Assembly: GCA_947169745.1 (NCBI GenBank)
Contig: CAMVQZ010000002.1
Location: forward strand, 2,208-66,207
From: an uncultured Clostridia bacterium
GTDB taxonomy: Bacteria; Bacillota; Clostridia; Oscillospirales; Acutalibacteraceae
Length of the DNA stretch: 64,000 bases
Direction: 5' to 3'
Below are positions 57,333-64,000 of the stretch, piece after piece (the first letter of the stretch is position 1; each line of letters begins with the position of its first letter). The translations under genes were made by a program, and so were the position numbers. The notes under the pieces were generated by a model. That model had not been told where the DNA came from. It did no database searches and saw nothing but the letters and a program-made list of their open reading frames with translations.

Positions 57333-57686
57333 ATGGATCTTATTATTTCGTTTCTTGCCGGAGGAATACTCTGCGTAATAGCGCAGATACTCATTGACAA
57401 AACAAGCCTCACTCCTGCAAAGATACTGGTTTTTTATGTTGTAGCCGGAGTTTTACTGACAGCGATAGGGTTTTATGACAGATTTGTGGACATCGCGGGA
57501 GCCGGCGCAACTGTACCCCTGACAGGCTTCGGATATTCCCTTGCAAAGGGAACAGAAAAGGCCATTTCCCGTGACGGCTTTCCCGGAATACTTACCGGAG
57601 GATTATCCGCCTGTTCTGCCGGTATTGCTGCCGCTGTTTTTTTCGGAGCAGCTTTTTCGCTGGTATCTCAGTCAAGACCGAAATAA
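57333..57686 (+). CDS. spoVAE: Stage V sporulation protein AE (SpoVAEB-type, dipicolinate channel component)
   Basis: 117 aa. GGILCVIAQILID..SLTPA...FVDIAGAGATVPLTGFGYSL...SAGIAAAVFFG aligns along its full length, by eye, with Bacillus SpoVAEB. Confidence 0.85.
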   Translation: MDLIISFLAGGILCVIAQILIDKTSLTPAKILVFYVVAGVLLTAIGFYDRFVDIAGAGATVPLTGFGYSLAKGTEKAISRDGFPGILTGGLSACSAGIAAAVFFGAAFSLVSQSRPK

Positions 57687-57805: not shown

Positions 57806-58117
57806 CTAATCGTTGTTACGGGCGGACTTTTTTTCGTCTGTTCTGATAAGATCGTTTTCACCAGCTTCTCCCTGAAGCATATTTCTGAAGGGCTCCAGAG
57901 CCATTCTTCCGCCGGGAAACAGGTCTGCTACTGCGTCAAACGCAGCTCCTGCTGTGTCCCCTTTTTCTCCCTTTTCCTCAATTACCGCTGTACCTGCAGC
58001 AGAAGCTGTGGTGCTCATGGTCATTGCTCCTGCCGAATACATTGTAACAGCCGCAAATACAACCGCCATCATCCTTGTCCTTAATGCAGATTTTTTCACA
58101 GTGACCACTTCCCTCAT
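57806..58117 (-). CDS. Small secreted hypothetical protein
   Basis: 103 aa with a signal-peptide-like N-terminus (KKSALRTRMMAVVFAAVTMYSAGAMTMSTTASA). I recognise no family. Confidence 0.4.
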   Translation of the reverse strand: MREVVTVKKSALRTRMMAVVFAAVTMYSAGAMTMSTTASAAGTAVIEEKGEKGDTAGAAFDAVADLFPGGRMALEPFRNMLQGEAGENDLIRTDEKKSARNND

Positions 58118-58157: not shown

Positions 58158-58306
58158 TATGATATCACCCGGAGCCGCTTATGCATATATTCAAAAAGCC
58201 CTTATTCTGTAGCTTAGTTTACAATCCGTGGTTAAAGTGTAGTTTAATATACACAGGAAGAAAAATAGTAAATTATTCTTGAACAATAAACGCTCCTATG
58301 ATATCA
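58158..58306. promoter_or_regulatory. Two copies of the palindrome TATGATATCA in the divergent tetR intergenic region (candidate TetR operators)
   Basis: TATGATATCA at 58158-58167 and 58297-58306; the core TGATATCA is a perfect 8-bp palindrome. The second copy lies about 35 nt upstream of the tetR start. Confidence 0.4.
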
Positions 58307-58341
58307 TCAAAATCACAGACAGGAAGGGAGGATATATCCTT

Positions 58342-58878
58342 ATGGAGGATAAAAAGACTGACCGCAGGTCTCTGAAAACACAAAAATTGCTCAAGGAAGC
58401 TCTTGCAGAAATGCTGACAGAAAAAGAGCTGAGAAAAATAACAGTCCAGGAGGTATCCGACAGAGCGGATGTTCACCGGGTAACCTTTTATAAGCATTTT
58501 TATGACATATATGATCTGTATGAACAGCTGGAAAAGGACGTGCTTTCCGAGCTGGGACTGCTGATCCTGAAATTCCACGATGATACAACAAAGAATTTCG
58601 GTCAAGAGCTGGTAGATTACATAGAGAAAAACCCGAAGATTTTCAGAATGATATTCAGCCCACACAATACAGCCCAGATAAAATCAAAATTCACGAATAT
58701 GGTGGAGGGAGTATTTCGTCTGATACAGACAGAAAAAAGCACCCTTGCGCTGAATGATATCCGTCTGGATTATTTTTCTGCCTTCTGGTCCAGCGGATGC
58801 ATATCGTACTCCAAACAACATCCACCATTTAGTATTGATACCCGATTTTGCCAACGCCGATTACTCCACGACGAATAA
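58342..58878 (+). CDS. TetR/AcrR family transcriptional regulator, C-terminus possibly replaced by the island junction
   Basis: HTH region LKEALAEMLTEKELRKITVQEVSDRADVHRVTFYKHF. Start ATG 58342 follows a GGAAGGGAGG RBS. The last 50 nt overlap the convergent 515-aa gene. Confidence 0.8.
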   Translation: MEDKKTDRRSLKTQKLLKEALAEMLTEKELRKITVQEVSDRADVHRVTFYKHFYDIYDLYEQLEKDVLSELGLLILKFHDDTTKNFGQELVDYIEKNPKIFRMIFSPHNTAQIKSKFTNMVEGVFRLIQTEKSTLALNDIRLDYFSAFWSSGCISYSKQHPPFSIDTRFCQRRLLHDE

Positions 58879-60376
58879 TAGTAATTCCGAATTTGTCATA
58901 TTCAAACGCATCCGGAGTAAAGGAATCAAACTGAAAGCTATCATACTGAAAAGTTTCGTAATCGAATTTTTCGTAATCGAAAACATCGATTACGATTTCA
59001 TCTAATATTTCTTGCGGCAACTCGTAATTTTGATCCACCAAGCCAAAGAAAGTACAGCCCGAATCAACGCAAAATGACATAAACAGACTATGCCCTAAAT
59101 TGTAGGCGAATCCGCCAATCACACCGCCAATAAAGCTACCGAGCATATATGCCGCCATTGCAAGTGGAGGTATTTCGACAAACCACACACTTGCTGCGAT
59201 TCCTCCGCCCACCGAAAAGGCTGTTGTTATGTACAATCGAGACATTTCCTCAGCCATTTGTGCTTTATTGATTCTGCCCGTAGCAAGTCTGATTCCGCTT
59301 TCCAAGGTTCCAATCATCAACACAACAGCCGTAGAAATCATTGACGCATTTGCTCCCATCAACGTAGTTCCCAGCTTGCCGCTTTGACAACAAGCTACAA
59401 GTGCAGCTGTAATTGAACCGTTAATAAATCCTCTTGCAGCAGAACTCAAGCCCTTATATCCCATCTCCGCAAACAGCTTAGGATCTATTTCACCTTCGGA
59501 AACGAGCATTGATATTCCGTCAATAATTGTGGGAGCTATTCCTATAACGAAAGAAATAACTGCTGCACTTAACCCGGCTGAAAAGGCTTCGCTCATTATG
59601 TCTTTTGCCGTCACTAACTGATTTATATCTAAACCGCATTCTTTTAATAATTCTTGATCGAGGTTTCCTTCTTTTGCTGCTCTTGTTAATCTTTGAGCGT
59701 CTTCTCTGCTGAGCGGAATTGATTTATTTCCTTTTTTATCAGACAGAATATCTGTTAATGTTGCTTGTACCTCTCTGTATCGAGCTACTTGATCCAGCTT
59801 TCCGTTTGCTTGCGCTACCGCTATTTTTTTATCTAACAGTTTTTGAGCATCTAACAATTGATTGGTGGGAATAAGCTTTGCTTGACCTTGATACATAGAC
59901 TTATGCATATCTTCTTTCTTGATTTTTCTTTTTCCAAGGAATTCTTCAAGCGATTCATAGCTTTTTCCGGCTTTCTCTGCTTTAGCTTTAAGATGCATAT
60001 ATCGTTCATATGGTGTTTCTGATTGAGCAGCATATGAGCTTTTAGCATCCTTATAATACTTTAAACTGGCTCTGCTTCCGCCAAATTCCACGTCAGCGGA
60101 AGCGTATGTGTTTACATCAGGCGCTTTGGCTGTTGCGGCAGAATGATGAACAGCGGAATCAGCGTTAAAAGTTCCAGAATGCCATATTTCAGCTACAAAT
60201 CCTTGAAGCTTATCAGCAGGCAAATCAGTAGATTGAACTTTTGTCATAATATCACTTGAAATGGATTCAATCTGACTGTTTATTGTATCAATCCAAAGCT
60301 GTGATATATGTCCGCCCAAAGCTGCACCCATATTATTAGAAACAAACTTTAGCCCTTGTTCAAAAGCAATACTCAT
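58829..60376 (-). CDS. Unassigned 515-aa protein: soluble helical N-domain, 4-5 glycine-zipper/small-residue TM helices, aromatic-acidic repeat tail (ORF-B of the hsdR-linked pair)
   Basis: Long ORF whose ATG overlaps the upstream stop (TAATG), with a GGAG RBS 8 nt upstream. Hydrophobic segments: FSAGLSAAVISFVIGIAPTII, ISTAVVLMIGTL, FSVGGGIAASVWFV and MLGSFIGGVIGGFAYNLG. I recognise no enzymatic motif. Confidence 0.75.
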   Translation of the reverse strand: MSIAFEQGLKFVSNNMGAALGGHISQLWIDTINSQIESISSDIMTKVQSTDLPADKLQGFVAEIWHSGTFNADSAVHHSAATAKAPDVNTYASADVEFGGSRASLKYYKDAKSSYAAQSETPYERYMHLKAKAEKAGKSYESLEEFLGKRKIKKEDMHKSMYQGQAKLIPTNQLLDAQKLLDKKIAVAQANGKLDQVARYREVQATLTDILSDKKGNKSIPLSREDAQRLTRAAKEGNLDQELLKECGLDINQLVTAKDIMSEAFSAGLSAAVISFVIGIAPTIIDGISMLVSEGEIDPKLFAEMGYKGLSSAARGFINGSITAALVACCQSGKLGTTLMGANASMISTAVVLMIGTLESGIRLATGRINKAQMAEEMSRLYITTAFSVGGGIAASVWFVEIPPLAMAAYMLGSFIGGVIGGFAYNLGHSLFMSFCVDSGCTFFGLVDQNYELPQEILDEIVIDVFDYEKFDYETFQYDSFQFDSFTPDAFEYDKFGITIIRRGVIGVGKIGYQY

Positions 60377-61056
60377 TACTTAATCTCCATAAATCCAGCA
60401 AGTCCGTCCAAATAAAAGCTTAAGACGGCATATCTTAACATCTGGTCGGAAATCAATTTGCTTGATTCGATTTTAGTGCCGATTTTAAAGAAATCTGTCC
60501 CTTCATTTTTTTCTTTTCCTGCAGGCGCACCCTTGATTTTTCCAAACAATCCTTTAACGGCTTTAGTTCCCTTTTCAAACGCTTCTCCAATACCATCGGT
60601 GTGAGTAGCTTTTTTGATAGATTCAGTATCTGCTACACTATCATCAAAGCGTTCTGTTAATTCTATGTATTTCTCATAAAAATCATCATACAAATCTTTA
60701 TTGCTAAAAAGTGTATTTGATTCAATATATAATACAGCCTTGTTTCCTATTGAGCCGACATATACACCGTATTTAGTCATATCCTTGTCAAACCTAATAC
60801 TCGGAATAACGGCTTCGGAAGATTTGTTCTTCCCTATGAAGATAAGCTTTGTATTTGAGCCAAGTTGAGCCTTATTATCATTATATATATCTTCGTTCCA
60901 AACAACTGCTTCTACACTTCCGTCTTTAATTCCTACAACGGTATTGTTTTCGACGTCATCATCCTTAAGTGTAATAAGCGACGATAACAATTCAGCATAT
61001 ACAGATTCCTTATCACCTGTAACGATTATCAGTTTTTTTACCATTCCGCCAATCAT
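60376..61056 (-). CDS. Unassigned 226-aa protein with an N-terminal alpha/beta (Rossmann/flavodoxin-like) pattern (ORF-A of the hsdR-linked pair)
   Basis: A GGAGGG RBS lies 7 nt upstream of ATG 61056, and there is a 56-nt gap after the hsdR stop. Beta-alpha-beta pattern KKLIIVTGDKESVYAELLSSLI...KLIFIGKN, then a Lys/Gly-rich segment KGLFGKIKGAPAGKEKNEG. I recognise no family. Confidence 0.7.
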   Translation of the reverse strand: MIGGMVKKLIIVTGDKESVYAELLSSLITLKDDDVENNTVVGIKDGSVEAVVWNEDIYNDNKAQLGSNTKLIFIGKNKSSEAVIPSIRFDKDMTKYGVYVGSIGNKAVLYIESNTLFSNKDLYDDFYEKYIELTERFDDSVADTESIKKATHTDGIGEAFEKGTKAVKGLFGKIKGAPAGKEKNEGTDFFKIGTKIESSKLISDQMLRYAVLSFYLDGLAGFMEIK

Positions 61057-61112
61057 AATGATCCCTCCTGTGTGTTAAATGCTGAAAAATCTTTTTTTCT
61101 TTCAAATGTTTT

Positions 61113-64000
61113 TTATTCCATATTCTCTTCGAAATTTTCAACCTGTTCCATAACTTTACGGAACACTTCGGGACTATACTGCGGAGGATAGCCATTTTTG
61201 ACCAAACAAATTTTAATATCAAACTTGAGCTGGTCACGGACAATTTGGTTATTTAGCCAATCTGCAAATGAGGATTTTGTATCAATAATCTCTTTAATCT
61301 TTATGGCGAGATTCTTGCACTTTTCATTTACAACAACGCCGTTTATTTTCTTATCTTCTCCGTATTCAAAATTATAGCTGTCACGTAAAGCCATCAAGAT
61401 ATCATAGAATGCCTTTTCCTCAAAAGTAAGTCCGACATTGCGGAAGCTGTCTCGGTCGGTTTTCATATCTTTGAGAATCTGCAAAGCCTGTTCGGTTGCT
61501 TCCCTGATAATCTCCTCTGATGCTTCTTCCTGCGCTTCGCCTGCTTCATCTGCGGTGAGATGCTTACGGCGTTCGTGATACTGCTCAATGGTTTTCTCCA
61601 ACATCTCTTGGAATTTCTTTGCTGCCATTTGATTCGTTTTGCCGTATTCCGTGATTTGTTTACGAAGCATCTTAATTAGCAGTTCAAGCTTGGACGCAGG
61701 CATTTTTACGTTTGTAAGAGATTCATAGTATTCCGGGCTGAAAATATCTTCCTGATCGCCTTCTTCAAGGACACTTTCAACTTTATTATACTTCAACGCT
61801 TCCTCAACCATTTTTGACACACGGCGATTCATTGTTTCTGTATCAAGTTCGGTTGTACCGCCCATCTTTCTAACAAATCCTGCAATAGCCATAAAGCACT
61901 GTGCCAAAGCGGATTCTTCATCGCTTAATTCACCGGACGGCTGACAAATATCATAAGCAGAACGCATCCGTCTGACAGTTTTTAAGAAGTATGTTTTGAA
62001 GGATACTTTTTTAACTTCTTTTCCGCCTTTTGCTTCTGTGTTCAGCTCTTGCGTAGAAATAAAAACGTACTCGGCAGCTTTTGCCAATAATCTGTATCGT
62101 TCAGCAGGATCACCTTTTGGATCTAAAAACGGGCTCAAGTCATATCCGACAAACAGATCTTCGAGAATCGACATCTCTTCTCTGAAAATATCCGTAGCCT
62201 GATTAACGTCGTCCACCGAAGGCGCAACCGAATGATTGCCGCCGTACATCTTTACGGCTTCACGCATATTGTCACGAATGCCGATATAGTCAATAATAAT
62301 ACCAAAGTCTTTACCGGGATACTTGCGATTTACGCGGCTGATAGTTTGAATTAAAAGTTGTTTTTGCAAGGGCTTGTCATTGTACATATATGTAAGCGAC
62401 GGAACATCAAAACCCGTAATCCACATATCAACAACGATAACTATACGGAAGTTAGATTTGTCCTGCTTAAAGGCAGCGTCTAATTTTTCAGAACGTTTAG
62501 CGTTCTTTACACCGCCCAAATAATCATACATTTCTTGTTCGTCGTTCTTGCCGACGCTGGCGACCATTGCCATACAGGGCATCTCTTTCAATTCACGGAG
62601 TTCCTCTGCGGTTGCCGTGACTCCGTCGGGCGTCTTTTTCTCAATAAACCATTCGGGATATTTGTCTTGGAATATTTTCAGCAATTTATATGCAATCGGT
62701 CTGCTGGAGCAAACCACCATTGCTTTTTGAACTCTGTCGGGATCATTCGCACAGGCTGCAACATAGTGGTCGTGAATATCCACCGCAAGGCGTTCCAAGC
62801 GTTCCGGCTCATCAAGAATTTTTTCCATAGAGGACATTGCTTTTTTACTTGCTTCAATATCCTCTTTTGTTGCGCCTGAATCAGCGCATTTTTTATAGTA
62901 TTCCTCAATCAGCCGCACTTGCTTTTCATCCAAAAGCACCTTTGCTATACGCGGATGGTATTTGATAGATACAGTTAATCCGTCGGCGACAGCCTGATCC
63001 ATTGTGTAACGGTCAATTTCATCACCGAAGGTCTGATAGGTTTCTGCTATCGGCGTACCTGTAAAGCCGACAAAGGTAGCGCACGGGAAGGCTTCACGCA
63101 ATACTTTTGCATACGGCTTTGATACCATTGCCTTCATATTGTCATCGGCATCCTTGCTGAACTGAATCTTCTTAGAATGTTCGAGCTGGGTTCTGTGTGC
63201 TTCGTCAGAGAAACAAATAATATTGTTACGGTCATTGATCAAACCGATTTTGTCATCTTCTCTGTCACAGAATTTTTGAATTGTGCAGATATAAAATCCT
63301 CCGCTCTGACGAGTGCCAAGCTCTTGCCTTAAATCTTTTCGGGTAGAGACGACCTTAACTTCGCCGAGGTTCAGGAACTCTTCACTCTTGGTGAAAAGCT
63401 TTGCTCCTTGTTTTTGCAGCTCCTCACGGTCAACGATCATAACAATAGTGGGAGAACCGATTTCGGGTACAGCCGTGCAGCGCAATGCTAACTGACGTGA
63501 TAAAAACGCCATTGTATAGGTCTTGCCGCAACCGGTTGCGCCGAAATATGTACCGCCTTTTCCGCTTTTCTCTTTAACTGATTTTATAATACTCTGCTTT
63601 AATAAGCGTGCGGCGAAAAACTGCGGATAACGGCATACGATCTCACGTTCATCGCTGTCGTACTTGCTGTCTTGAAAATAGATATAATCACGGAATATTT
63701 CAAGGAATCTTTCAGGGCTGTAAACACCCTTAATCATAGACTGCACTTCGTCAAAAGGCAGTGAAGAAACCTTATCGCCGTCATTCACACGACGCCAGGC
63801 ATAAAAGTGCTCATACGGCGTGCGGACAGTGCCAAGTCTGGTGTTCACTCCATCCGAAATACAGGCTAACGGGCAAAAGTGCAGTAAATGCGGAATATCA
63901 CGCCAATAGCGATAATAAATCTGCTCCCACGCGTCATAGATTTTTGCGTGAGCGTCCGCAGGATTCTTTAATTCAATAATGCACAAGGGTATTCCGTTTA
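61113..64000 (-). CDS. hsdR: Type I restriction enzyme R subunit (HsdR); N-terminus runs off the window
   Basis: PD-(D/E)xK region ...NGIPLCIIELKNP (the ORF stays open to nt 64000). Helicase motif I GATGCGKT and motif II FSDEAHRT, further SF2 motifs, and a helical HsdR-type C-terminal domain. Confidence 0.9.
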   Translation of the reverse strand, partial: NGIPLCIIELKNPADAHAKIYDAWEQIYYRYWRDIPHLLHFCPLACISDGVNTRLGTVRTPYEHFYAWRRVNDGDKVSSLPFDEVQSMIKGVYSPERFLEIFRDYIYFQDSKYDSDEREIVCRYPQFFAARLLKQSIIKSVKEKSGKGGTYFGATGCGKTYTMAFLSRQLALRCTAVPEIGSPTIVMIVDREELQKQGAKLFTKSEEFLNLGEVKVVSTRKDLRQELGTRQSGGFYICTIQKFCDREDDKIGLINDRNNIICFSDEAHRTQLEHSKKIQFSKDADDNMKAMVSKPYAKVLREAFPCATFVGFTGTPIAETYQTFGDEIDRYTMDQAVADGLTVSIKYHPRIAKVLLDEKQVRLIEEYYKKCADSGATKEDIEASKKAMSSMEKILDEPERLERLAVDIHDHYVAACANDPDRVQKAMVVCSSRPIAYKLLKIFQDKYPEWFIEKKTPDGVTATAEELRELKEMPCMAMVASVGKNDEQEMYDYLGGVKNAKRSEKLDAAFKQDKSNFRIVIVVDMWITGFDVPSLTYMYNDKPLQKQLLIQTISRVNRKYPGKDFGIIIDYIGIRDNMREAVKMYGGNHSVAPSVDDVNQATDIFREEMSILEDLFVGYDLSPFLDPKGDPAERYRLLAKAAEYVFISTQELNTEAKGGKEVKKVSFKTYFLKTVRRMRSAYDICQPSGELSDEESALAQCFMAIAGFVRKMGGTTELDTETMNRRVSKMVEEALKYNKVESVLEEGDQEDIFSPEYYESLTNVKMPASKLELLIKMLRKQITEYGKTNQMAAKKFQEMLEKTIEQYHERRKHLTADEAGEAQEEASEEIIREATEQALQILKDMKTDRDSFRNVGLTFEEKAFYDILMALRDSYNFEYGEDKKINGVVVNEKCKNLAIKIKEIIDTKSSFADWLNNQIVRDQLKFDIKICLVKNGYPPQYSPEVFRKVMEQVENFEENME

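Follow-up and report, generated by a model that had tools for sequence, protein, structure and literature searches.

What is the role of the two genes that directly follow hsdR, the gene for the R subunit of a type I restriction-modification (RM) system, in an uncultured Clostridia bacterium of the Acutalibacteraceae? The locus belongs to a stretch of 64,000 nucleotides (nt) from contig CAMVQZ010000002.1 (assembly GCA_947169745.1, positions 2,208 to 66,207), which is called the window here. A preliminary description of the two open reading frames (ORFs), ORF-A and ORF-B, regarded them as unassignable to any protein family and as a candidate undescribed defence module. Conservation across genomes identifies both as genuine conserved genes and not chance ORFs, and comparison with near-identical copies in other genomes identifies them as a self-contained, horizontally mobile two-gene module. 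By profile comparison, ORF-B is a remote homologue, but not a member, of PDC-M09B, a protein of a candidate defence cassette. We give about even chances to the proposal that the pair acts in abortive infection, with A as the controller of B, a glycine-zipper effector that inserts into the membrane.

A mobile gene pair behind hsdR

hsdR, ORF-A and ORF-B are all encoded on the minus strand of the 64-kb window, in the order hsdR-A-B (ORF calls). The locus comprises the following features:

61113..64000, minus strand: hsdR for the R subunit of type I restriction; the final 957 codons, with the reading frame still open at base 64000
61057..61112, minus strand: 56-nt spacer between hsdR and ORF-A, read from the sequence
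60376..61056, minus strand: ORF-A, 226 amino acids (aa); ORF call, AlphaFold2 model and family alignment
60374..60378, minus strand: TAATG stop/start overlap of ORF-A and ORF-B; junction ...AAG TAATG AGT..., with the shared A at 60376
58829..60376, minus strand: ORF-B, 515 aa; ORF call, AlphaFold2 model and family alignment
58738..58751, minus strand: terminator-like stem and T-run, 78 nt past the ORF-B stop codon; consensus scan

The R subunit was identified by Pfam (T1RH-like_C, SWI2_SNF2, T1R_D3-like, ResIII, HSDR_N), NCBIfam (TIGR00348) and the PADLOC model REase_I (E = 1.8e-208), and its reading frame ends with the stop codon TAA at 61115-61113. ORF-A has its own ribosome-binding site (RBS), AGGAGGG at 61069-61063, six bases before the ATG (61056-61054). 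The sequence bears out the preliminary description of this layout in full, i.e., the coordinates and lengths of the ORFs, the strand shared with hsdR, the TAATG overlap, the separate RBS and the position after hsdR. The pair also resides in an AT-richer island as described, with a GC content of 0.37-0.41 across 58-62 kb vs ~0.45 in the remainder of the window. No terminator-like site was found by the consensus scan between hsdR and ORF-A. The stem past ORF-B possibly marks the end of an hsdR-A-B transcript; the scan returned 5 terminator-like sites vs 2.2 expected from shuffles, which is weak evidence. Promoter matches in the window were no more numerous than in shuffled sequence.

Homologues of both proteins are numerous, and all are named 'hypothetical' in the databases. 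A profile search of 1.84 billion representatives placed B homologues in at least 1,178 clusters at 50% identity (E <= 1e-3). At 90% identity, B homologues formed at least 188 clusters and the A family, again by profile search, 388 clusters, all of them unannotated. In a scan of one genome per species, a B relative was encoded in 184 genomes, and 80 of these 184 loci were retrieved for pair analysis. Conservation of the two genes as neighbours was confirmed by this survey: in 77 of the 80 loci, B is directly preceded by a same-strand A homologue, as detected by hidden Markov model. Among the three exceptions, one contig begins inside B and two have an upstream protein of 171-173 aa that is related to A by hhalign. 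An A homologue is also found upstream of B in nine of ten viral contigs and in the phage and plasmid matches. The intergenic distance is at most 22 nt in all intact pairs, with a mode of +3 nt. Pairwise identities among A proteins correlate with those among B proteins (r = 0.84 over 71 non-identical pairs), which indicates that the two genes were inherited together and that partners were not swapped, while A evolves faster than B (mean identity 36% vs 47%). In one 778-aa protein (P0311), a hydrophobic N-terminal segment and an A-like domain (hhalign probability 90%) are fused ahead of a full-length ORF-B-like protein; this could possibly be a Rosetta-stone fusion or, likewise, an artefact of a lost stop codon.

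The family extends over the Streptococcus mitis/pneumoniae group, S. suis, rumen and gut Clostridia, Bacillaceae and Coriobacteriia. Isolate genomes firmly support its presence in Bacillota (Clostridia, Streptococcus, Bacillaceae) and Coriobacteriia, whereas its occurrence in Bacteroidota, Spirochaetota, Fusobacteriota, Fibrobacterota and one archaeon rests on metagenome-assembled genomes (MAGs). Five loci (L039, L055, L072, L084, L091) labelled Senegalimassilia, Oscillospiraceae, Methanomethylophilaceae archaeon, Alistipes and Fibrobacter share DNA of 88-91% identity over >10 kb, housekeeping-like genes included. Such near-identity across phylum labels indicates that a single study probably contributed these contigs as mis-binned MAG sequence, and the apparent taxonomic breadth was discounted in part for this reason. 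B is split into two ORFs at three of the five loci and is possibly a pseudogene there.

The ORF-A/ORF-B cassette is a discrete module of 2.27 kb. Copies with 95-97% nucleotide identity in Lachnoclostridium sp. MSJ-17, Ruminococcus sp. JL13D9 and two Clostridia MAGs match exactly positions 58829-61096 of the window, in other contexts (blastn). Homology ends at ~61090-61096 on the upstream side and at 58828-58833, i.e., at the ORF-B stop codon, on the downstream side. Four relatives (L014, L015, L016, L018) have a near-consensus promoter, TTGATA-N17-TATAAT, ~45 nt upstream of the ATG of A. Boundary alignment places the promoter region of these relatives as follows:

L014:4700-4775: promoter region
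L015/L018:9240-9320: promoter region

In the window copy, the 3' end of hsdR takes the place of the promoter and the shared sequence is confined to the RBS region, so that the recombination breakpoint falls between promoter and RBS. Direct or inverted repeats that might account for its mobility were sought at the cassette boundaries and not found. As near-identical copies exist elsewhere with their own promoter, the juxtaposition of hsdR, A and B is secondary. The previously proposed tie to hsdR hence stands insofar as the cassette adjoins hsdR at this locus, but not as an original property of the cassette. The layout in the window most simply implies that A and B are expressed by read-through from the hsd operon.

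Protein features and remote homology to PDC-M09B

An AlphaFold2 model of ORF-B was based on 59 sequences and reached a predicted local distance difference test score (pLDDT) of 80. It divides the protein into three parts:

59609..60376, minus strand: N-terminal soluble domain, aa 1-256; AlphaFold2 pLDDT mostly >90
59060..59608, minus strand: hydrophobic region, aa 257-439; five predicted long helices, rich in Ala/Gly/Ser
58829..59059, minus strand: C-terminal module, aa 440-515 and stop codon; low model confidence

The N-domain had been described as helical and about 260 aa long. Its extent agrees with the confident soluble domain (residues 1-255) of the model, but the predicted fold is mixed alpha/beta and not purely helical, with two long helices followed by an alpha-beta-beta-beta-alpha-beta unit. 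Residues G59, E63, S93, D95, K106, Y162 and S219 of this domain are invariant across the family, and H66, N71, S79 and D213 are nearly so. The glycine-zipper hydrophobic helices and the repeat tail noted previously are both present. The family alignment contains an invariant zipper, G413-S414-x-x-G417-x-x-x-G421, within the hydrophobic region. Just past the last helix follows the most conserved motif of the family, SFCVDSGCTFFGLVDQNYxLP. The tail contains six perfect acidic/aromatic pentads (FDYEK FDYET FQYDS FQFDS FTPDA FEYDK; aa 466-495, nt 58889-58981) and ends in a RRGVIGVGKIGY hairpin. Tandem DNA repeats of 15 nt are located at 58919-58948, inside the C-terminal module.

ORF-A was modelled by AlphaFold2 from an alignment of 30 sequences (pLDDT 75). 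The model and the alignment support the domain order of the preliminary description: an alpha/beta domain with five strands (residues 7-135), a Lys/Gly linker that is disordered (residues 154-188) and a long, amphipathic and conserved C-terminal helix (residues 189-222). Family invariants include Y20, D33, G42, S67, G75, A107, Y123, F126, Q205 and Y215. Hydropathy analysis of ORF-A detected no hydrophobic segment; in several homologues, the linker is swapped for a hydrophobic glycine-zipper-like stretch. Foldseek searches against PDB returned only sub-threshold, partial Rossmann-like matches (all E >= 0.045), among them a MoeA domain, lumazine synthase, SIS domains and the Argonaute MID domain. 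The flavodoxin/Rossmann-like fold suggested earlier is therefore a reasonable assignment for the modelled structure, one that does not extend to a particular family. A TIR domain was considered for ORF-A as well and rejected, as the same search recovered no TIR although PDB is rich in TIR domains.

Sequence searches with ORF-A yielded no significant match in Pfam, NCBIfam, PHROGs, PADLOC or PDB sequences, and lenient scans of its family, among them one of 22 members against Pfam at E <= 1, yielded nothing consistent. ORF-B had no significant match in Pfam, NCBIfam, PHROGs or PDB sequences, and neither protein had a PHROG match below E = 0.03. When 59 B-family members were compared with Pfam at E <= 1, the weak matches of the hydrophobic region were only to glycine-zipper membrane families, and two members matched NucS_C weakly. 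Profile searches of PDB sequences with either protein gave only noise (apolipophorin, Elongator). Foldseek found poor matches of ORF-B to unrelated membrane proteins in PDB and nothing in BFVD, with no nucleases. Profile and fold searches thus offered no family outside defence for either protein.

The one assignment that emerged is to PDC-M09, which corresponds to cassette CAS_00055 (FAM_02775>>FAM_02807) of PADLOC-DB v2 with 380 RefSeq copies (bioRxiv 10.1101/2024.01.29.577857). PDC-M09 is one of 145 untested phage defence candidates that were chosen because of their embedding in type I RM, BREX or DISARM operons (Payne et al., bioRxiv 10.1101/2024.01.29.577857), and like the A-B pair it is unannotated. 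ORF-B of the window matches the PDC-M09B profile weakly (E = 9.3e-4, 15.9 bits; aa 58-431 vs profile positions 68-391 of 480). At the level of the family the match is solid, in that 41 of 59 B-family members match PDC-M09B in PADLOC over N-domain and helices with a best E of 7.4e-17, and relatives from Streptococcus, Bacillaceae and Adlercreutzia reach 42-60 bits over profile positions ~44-437 of 480. For proteins of ~500 aa, scores of this size indicate remote homology and not membership. No A partner matched PDC-M09A at E <= 1 or E <= 0.01 (0/30 of set A2, 0/8 of set A3 and 0/4 further partners), and no ORF-A relative matched any PADLOC model. Given the missing PDC-M09A match and the remote B scores, PADLOC would not call the locus PDC-M09. 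The two cassettes share a two-gene, same-strand organization with a homologous B and an RM/BREX/DISARM-type context, and in the window, as in PDC-M09, two adjacent same-strand genes lie beside type I RM (the window ends inside hsdR). They differ in the A protein, which fails the profile, in a comparison made by profile models alone. The terms unassignable and undescribed consequently require qualification. The former is correct for Pfam, NCBIfam, PHROGs and PDB but only in part for PADLOC; the latter is correct in that the pair is not a member of PDC-M09 but neglects the homology of B to PDC-M09B.

Some relatives of the B core start with a signal peptide or lipobox (LSGC), followed by Lys/Glu/Ala-rich repeats ahead of the N-domain:

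P0328, P0340, P0344, P0351, P0367, P0374, P0383; loci L101/L102: B-core relatives with signal peptide or lipobox

The C-terminus of these relatives differs and is without the Cys motif and the pentads of ORF-B. No A partner was found next to them; the gene upstream encodes an unrelated, unannotated 502-aa protein rich in zinc ribbons. Signal peptide or lipobox would place the N-domain outside the cell in these relatives, while it should be inside the cell in ORF-B, which has no signal peptide. A further B-like gene is present on the Butyrivibrio plasmid pCY186, which carries an A-B pair plus a second, longer B-like gene without an A homologue (L095:8814-10742, minus strand).

Genomic neighbourhoods and proposed function

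The 93 loci examined fall into 59 distinct neighbourhoods. Repeatedly, the cassette is accompanied by genes of type I RM or other defence systems, by WYL regulators or by mobile elements, in agreement with the defence-gene neighbourhood proposed initially. Three independent arrangements bring cassette and type I RM together:

hsdR-A-B: window
A-B, two or three genes, hsdR (EcoEI_R_C type), hsdM: L103/L104/L014/L015
A-B, three genes, hsdM-hsdS, three genes, hsdR: L001

In a human-gut phage, the gene order is methyltransferase-x-x-restriction endonuclease-A-B. One element combines the cassette with GmrSD, a HEPN-SNF2 helicase, WYL, PemK and an integrase; one island combines it with a WCX-domain (WYL-type) protein, PLD, Fic, an nSTAND-like AAA protein and PDDEXK_2; and one locus is a mobilisable element with MobL and an integrase. 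At L100:10000-17512, A-B is flanked on one side by a HEPN/TIR/DUF6602 island and on the other by what looks like a complete type VIIb secretion locus (WXG100, EsaA, YukC/EssB, FtsK-like EssC); the adjacency to the secretion locus is a single case and probably a coincidence.

Among 150 immediate neighbours (three genes per side in 25 contexts), Pfam matches included ResIII (4), HSDR_N (2), GmrSD_N (2), Methylase_S (2), WYL (2), AAA_21 (2), nSTAND3 (2) and BrxL (1), and PADLOC matches at E <= 1e-10 included REase_I, MTase_I, Specificity_I, BrxL, HEC-05, PDC-S01 and others. A limited seed panel, built only from proteins seen at these loci, located RM-like, other defence or WYL genes within 10 kb of the cassette in 21 of the 59 contexts; when only contexts with 12 kb or more of flank are counted, the figure is 16 of 33. 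For comparison, the base rate for an RM-type gene in a stretch of 20 kb is roughly estimated at ~1-3%.

A homologous WYL-HTH regulator precedes the cassette by 49-505 nt on the same strand at six loci (L023, L031, L032, L061, L082, L097), which represent at least six independent contexts, and follows B by 264 nt at another (L028). These regulators are mutually homologous (E = 1e-35 to 1e-81) despite their unrelated host genomes, which indicates that WYL-A-B also exists as a three-gene version that moves together. Regulators of the WYL type, among them BrxR and CapW, typically govern defence systems. The window copy has no WYL regulator. Mobile-element genes (relaxase, ParB, integrase or serine recombinase) occur in at least 10 of the 59 contexts. 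Of 50,697 phage records, one contained the cassette itself, as did 10 of 2.9 million IMG/VR viral contigs and 2 of 72,556 plasmids. This rarity argues against a role in lysis or conjugation, and conjugation, lysis and type VII secretion substrate functions were rejected as no match to LXG, WXG, type IV secretion or PHROG domains was obtained.

The most likely role of the cassette, at about even odds, is defence against phages or mobile elements by abortive infection. In this proposal, B would be the effector, with a conserved cytoplasmic N-domain joined to glycine-zipper hydrophobic helices. Once activated, these helices might insert into or open the cytoplasmic membrane and leave the cell depolarised or permeabilised. 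A would be a cytoplasmic flavodoxin-like protein, made in step with B via translational coupling, that binds B, probably via the C-terminal helix of A and the C-terminal module of B. In doing so, it could hold B inactive in an antitoxin-like manner or relay an infection signal in a sensor-like manner. The promoter-less module in the window, 56 nt behind hsdR, would probably be transcribed together with the type I restriction operon and thereby supply a second line of defence.

Similar principles are known from established systems. RexAB of phage lambda is a mobile-element-borne abortive infection system composed of a cytoplasmic sensor and a membrane ion-channel effector. The A-B pair is analogous in its adjacent soluble and putative membrane proteins, the proposed collapse of the membrane potential and its mobile carriage, but has no sequence or profile similarity to RexAB, and ORF-B is far larger than RexB, with a conserved soluble domain of 256 aa and a repeat tail. 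PrrC, an ABC-ATPase anticodon nuclease encoded between hsd genes, is likewise an accessory defence gene that is physically linked to type I RM genes, with which it is probably co-expressed. The cassette differs from PrrC as it follows hsdR and exists apart from hsd loci, and neither ORF-A nor ORF-B has a P-loop or nuclease match in Pfam, NCBIfam or PADLOC. Kiwa is also a two-gene, membrane-associated system, in which membrane protein KwaA and soluble partner KwaB form a complex (PMC11785009). Gene order and domain content of Kiwa differ from those of A-B, and its sensor is the membrane protein. Similarity to KwaB was limited to one noise-level match (E = 0.02) in 1 of 22 A-family members, and neither the A nor the B family matched RexAB, Kiwa, Zorya or other membrane-associated systems in PADLOC consistently.

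Several observations weigh against an abortive-infection role with B as membrane effector. The invariant polar residues of the N-domain suggest a more specific role of ORF-B than that of a pore. Only one of its helices is strongly hydrophobic (residues 263-292, KD19 2.1), while hydropathy is moderate at 341-360 and 384-425 and weak at 316-332. Loops across the family have a net charge of ~0 to negative. The hydrophobic region had been taken for a membrane domain, for which its hydrophobic helices speak, but it does not show the positive-inside bias of an ordinary polytopic protein. Judged by these features, ORF-B is likely a membrane protein, while constitutive integration into the membrane is not established. 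The exported relatives are hard to square with a single fixed topology of the B core. ORF-A has no match to any antitoxin or sensor family in Pfam, NCBIfam or PADLOC. The enrichment of defence genes near the cassette is suggestive and was gauged by rough, estimated base rates, not by matched random genes. About half of the contexts have plain housekeeping flanks, with several loci being clean two-gene insertions, and the Streptococcus mitis group maintains the cassette at one conserved chromosomal site in 15 species; both observations also fit an accessory function other than defence. In the literature, we found no paper that mentions accessions of family members, none that takes PDC-M09 further and no experiment on either. 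Together, the topology conflict, the modest hydrophobicity and the absent charge bias suggest that the helical region of ORF-B is not a fixed polytopic domain but inserts conditionally, as in pore-forming toxins.

Alternatively, B might be a membrane-tethered enzyme whose PD-(D/E)xK-like N-domain is a nuclease that attacks incoming DNA at the inner membrane, with A as regulator or specificity factor, a possibility that we regard as quite unlikely. The restriction-endonuclease-like core has the element order alpha-beta-beta-beta-alpha-beta, to which the predicted order in the N-domain corresponds, and the very confident model of this domain displays the invariant E63 (helix 1) along with H66, S93, D95 (strand 2) and S104-x-K106 (strand 3). 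E63, D95 and K106 would fit a PD-(D/E)xK site, but the motif reads SxK, with Ser, Gly or Gln at the acidic position of (D/E)xK, and the same motifs are kept in relatives with an exported N-domain. Except for the weak NucS_C matches (E = 0.12, in 2 of 59 members), no nuclease family was retrieved via Pfam, NCBIfam, PADLOC, PDB profiles or Foldseek against PDB and BFVD. The RM association of the pair would suit such an enzyme, whose activity would complement that of the neighbouring restriction enzyme. SNIPE (PD-lambda-1), which combines an N-terminal transmembrane helix, DUF4041 and a GIY-YIG nuclease in one polypeptide, resides at the inner membrane and acts on incoming phage DNA (PMC13190303), is a precedent for an enzyme domain held at this membrane. 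The precedent is conceptual only, because DUF4041 and GIY-YIG had no Pfam match at E <= 1 in 59 B- and 22 A-family members, so that ORF-B is not a SNIPE homologue. The pair could also be an addiction module, in which A is the antitoxin of membrane toxin B and stabilises mobile elements or RM islands without direct anti-phage activity. This would be in line with two overlapping genes of which the small one is upstream and the large one downstream, with the faster evolution of A, with the mobilisable or integrative elements that carry the pair in at least 10 of 59 contexts, and with a patchy distribution that includes stand-alone insertions between housekeeping genes. Yet A and B are both larger than is usual for toxin-antitoxin partners, A lacks a DNA-binding domain and any known antitoxin domain, B belongs to no Pfam or NCBIfam toxin family, plasmids rarely carry the cassette (2/72,556), and the recurrent WYL regulator and RM/defence neighbours point to defence. 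We therefore give stabilisation alone a low probability, while noting that toxin-antitoxin and abortive-infection roles are not mutually exclusive.

A third explanation dispenses with defence and views the pair as membrane or envelope cargo for stress tolerance, envelope maintenance or export, which is found near RM because both accumulate in variable regions. The conserved site in 15 Streptococcus species and the absence of a recognisable defence neighbour from about half of the contexts agree with this view, as does the one locus that adjoins a type VII secretion cluster. The relatives of the B core with signal peptide or lipobox and Lys/Glu-rich repeats look envelope-like as well and have another partner. 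Such cargo would leave unexplained why RM adjacency arose in three independent arrangements and in a phage, why a dedicated WYL regulator accompanies some copies, and why B is homologous to a candidate picked for its embedding in defence operons; the sharply modular, near-identical spread across unrelated contexts also argues against it. We consider an envelope function improbable.

We put forward a broader reading tentatively and regard it as rather unlikely. The B core, composed of the conserved N-domain and the glycine-zipper helical bundle, might represent a large superfamily without structural precedent whose members insert into membranes conditionally, with an exported branch that acts outside the cell and a cytoplasmic branch that is triggered by A, or by a signal read by A, and kills the infected cell from within. 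If true, this would constitute a new class of bacterial immune effectors without a relative in PDB, spread as a 2.3-kb plug-in for restriction operons. Neither protein family was previously represented in Pfam or in the structural databases searched. A defence function would give a role to two sizeable families that have no annotation, Pfam domain or structural relative, and would lend indirect support to PDC-M09. With its promoter-less copy behind hsdR, the window represents a natural example of modular layering, in which co-regulation of restriction and a putative abortive back-up is testable. The small size of the cassette (2.27 kb), its known boundaries and the native promoter available from relatives make cloning and testing straightforward.

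Genes bordering the module

The downstream border of the cassette is marked by a gene that does not belong to it:

58279..58878, plus strand: convergent TetR-family regulator gene (Pfam TetR_N, TetR_C_8)

Its 3' end overlaps that of ORF-B by 50 nt (58829-58878) and marks the insertion boundary of the cassette. As cassette homology stops at the ORF-B stop codon, cassette DNA supplies the last 16 codons of the TetR gene, and the regulator's native C-terminus may have been exchanged upon insertion.

In the closest relatives, two or three same-strand genes that are absent from the window are located between the cassette and type I RM:

L014:7042-9988: post-cassette genes
L015:11593-14539: post-cassette genes
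L018:11545-14508: post-cassette genes
L103:3185-5842: post-cassette genes

They encode proteins of ~427 aa, ~421 aa (a putative lipoprotein) and ~130 aa in one lineage, and a 513-aa YeeR_C-domain protein and a 366-aa protein in another. Further candidate cargo is present at L001:16831-19631, where hsdS and hsdR of a type I RM system are separated by three genes without annotation or Pfam match (202, 262 and 454 aa).

Beyond the TetR gene, the window continues with a dcw cluster (mraZ, rsmH, ftsL and a penicillin-binding protein gene). Two small ORFs lie between the TetR gene and this cluster. One (57806-58117, minus strand) encodes 103 aa with an Ala/Thr-rich, hydrophobic and signal-peptide-like N-terminal stretch; the other (57333-57686, plus strand) encodes a hydrophobic protein of 117 aa, whose sequence we take to be reminiscent of SpoVA-family membrane proteins.

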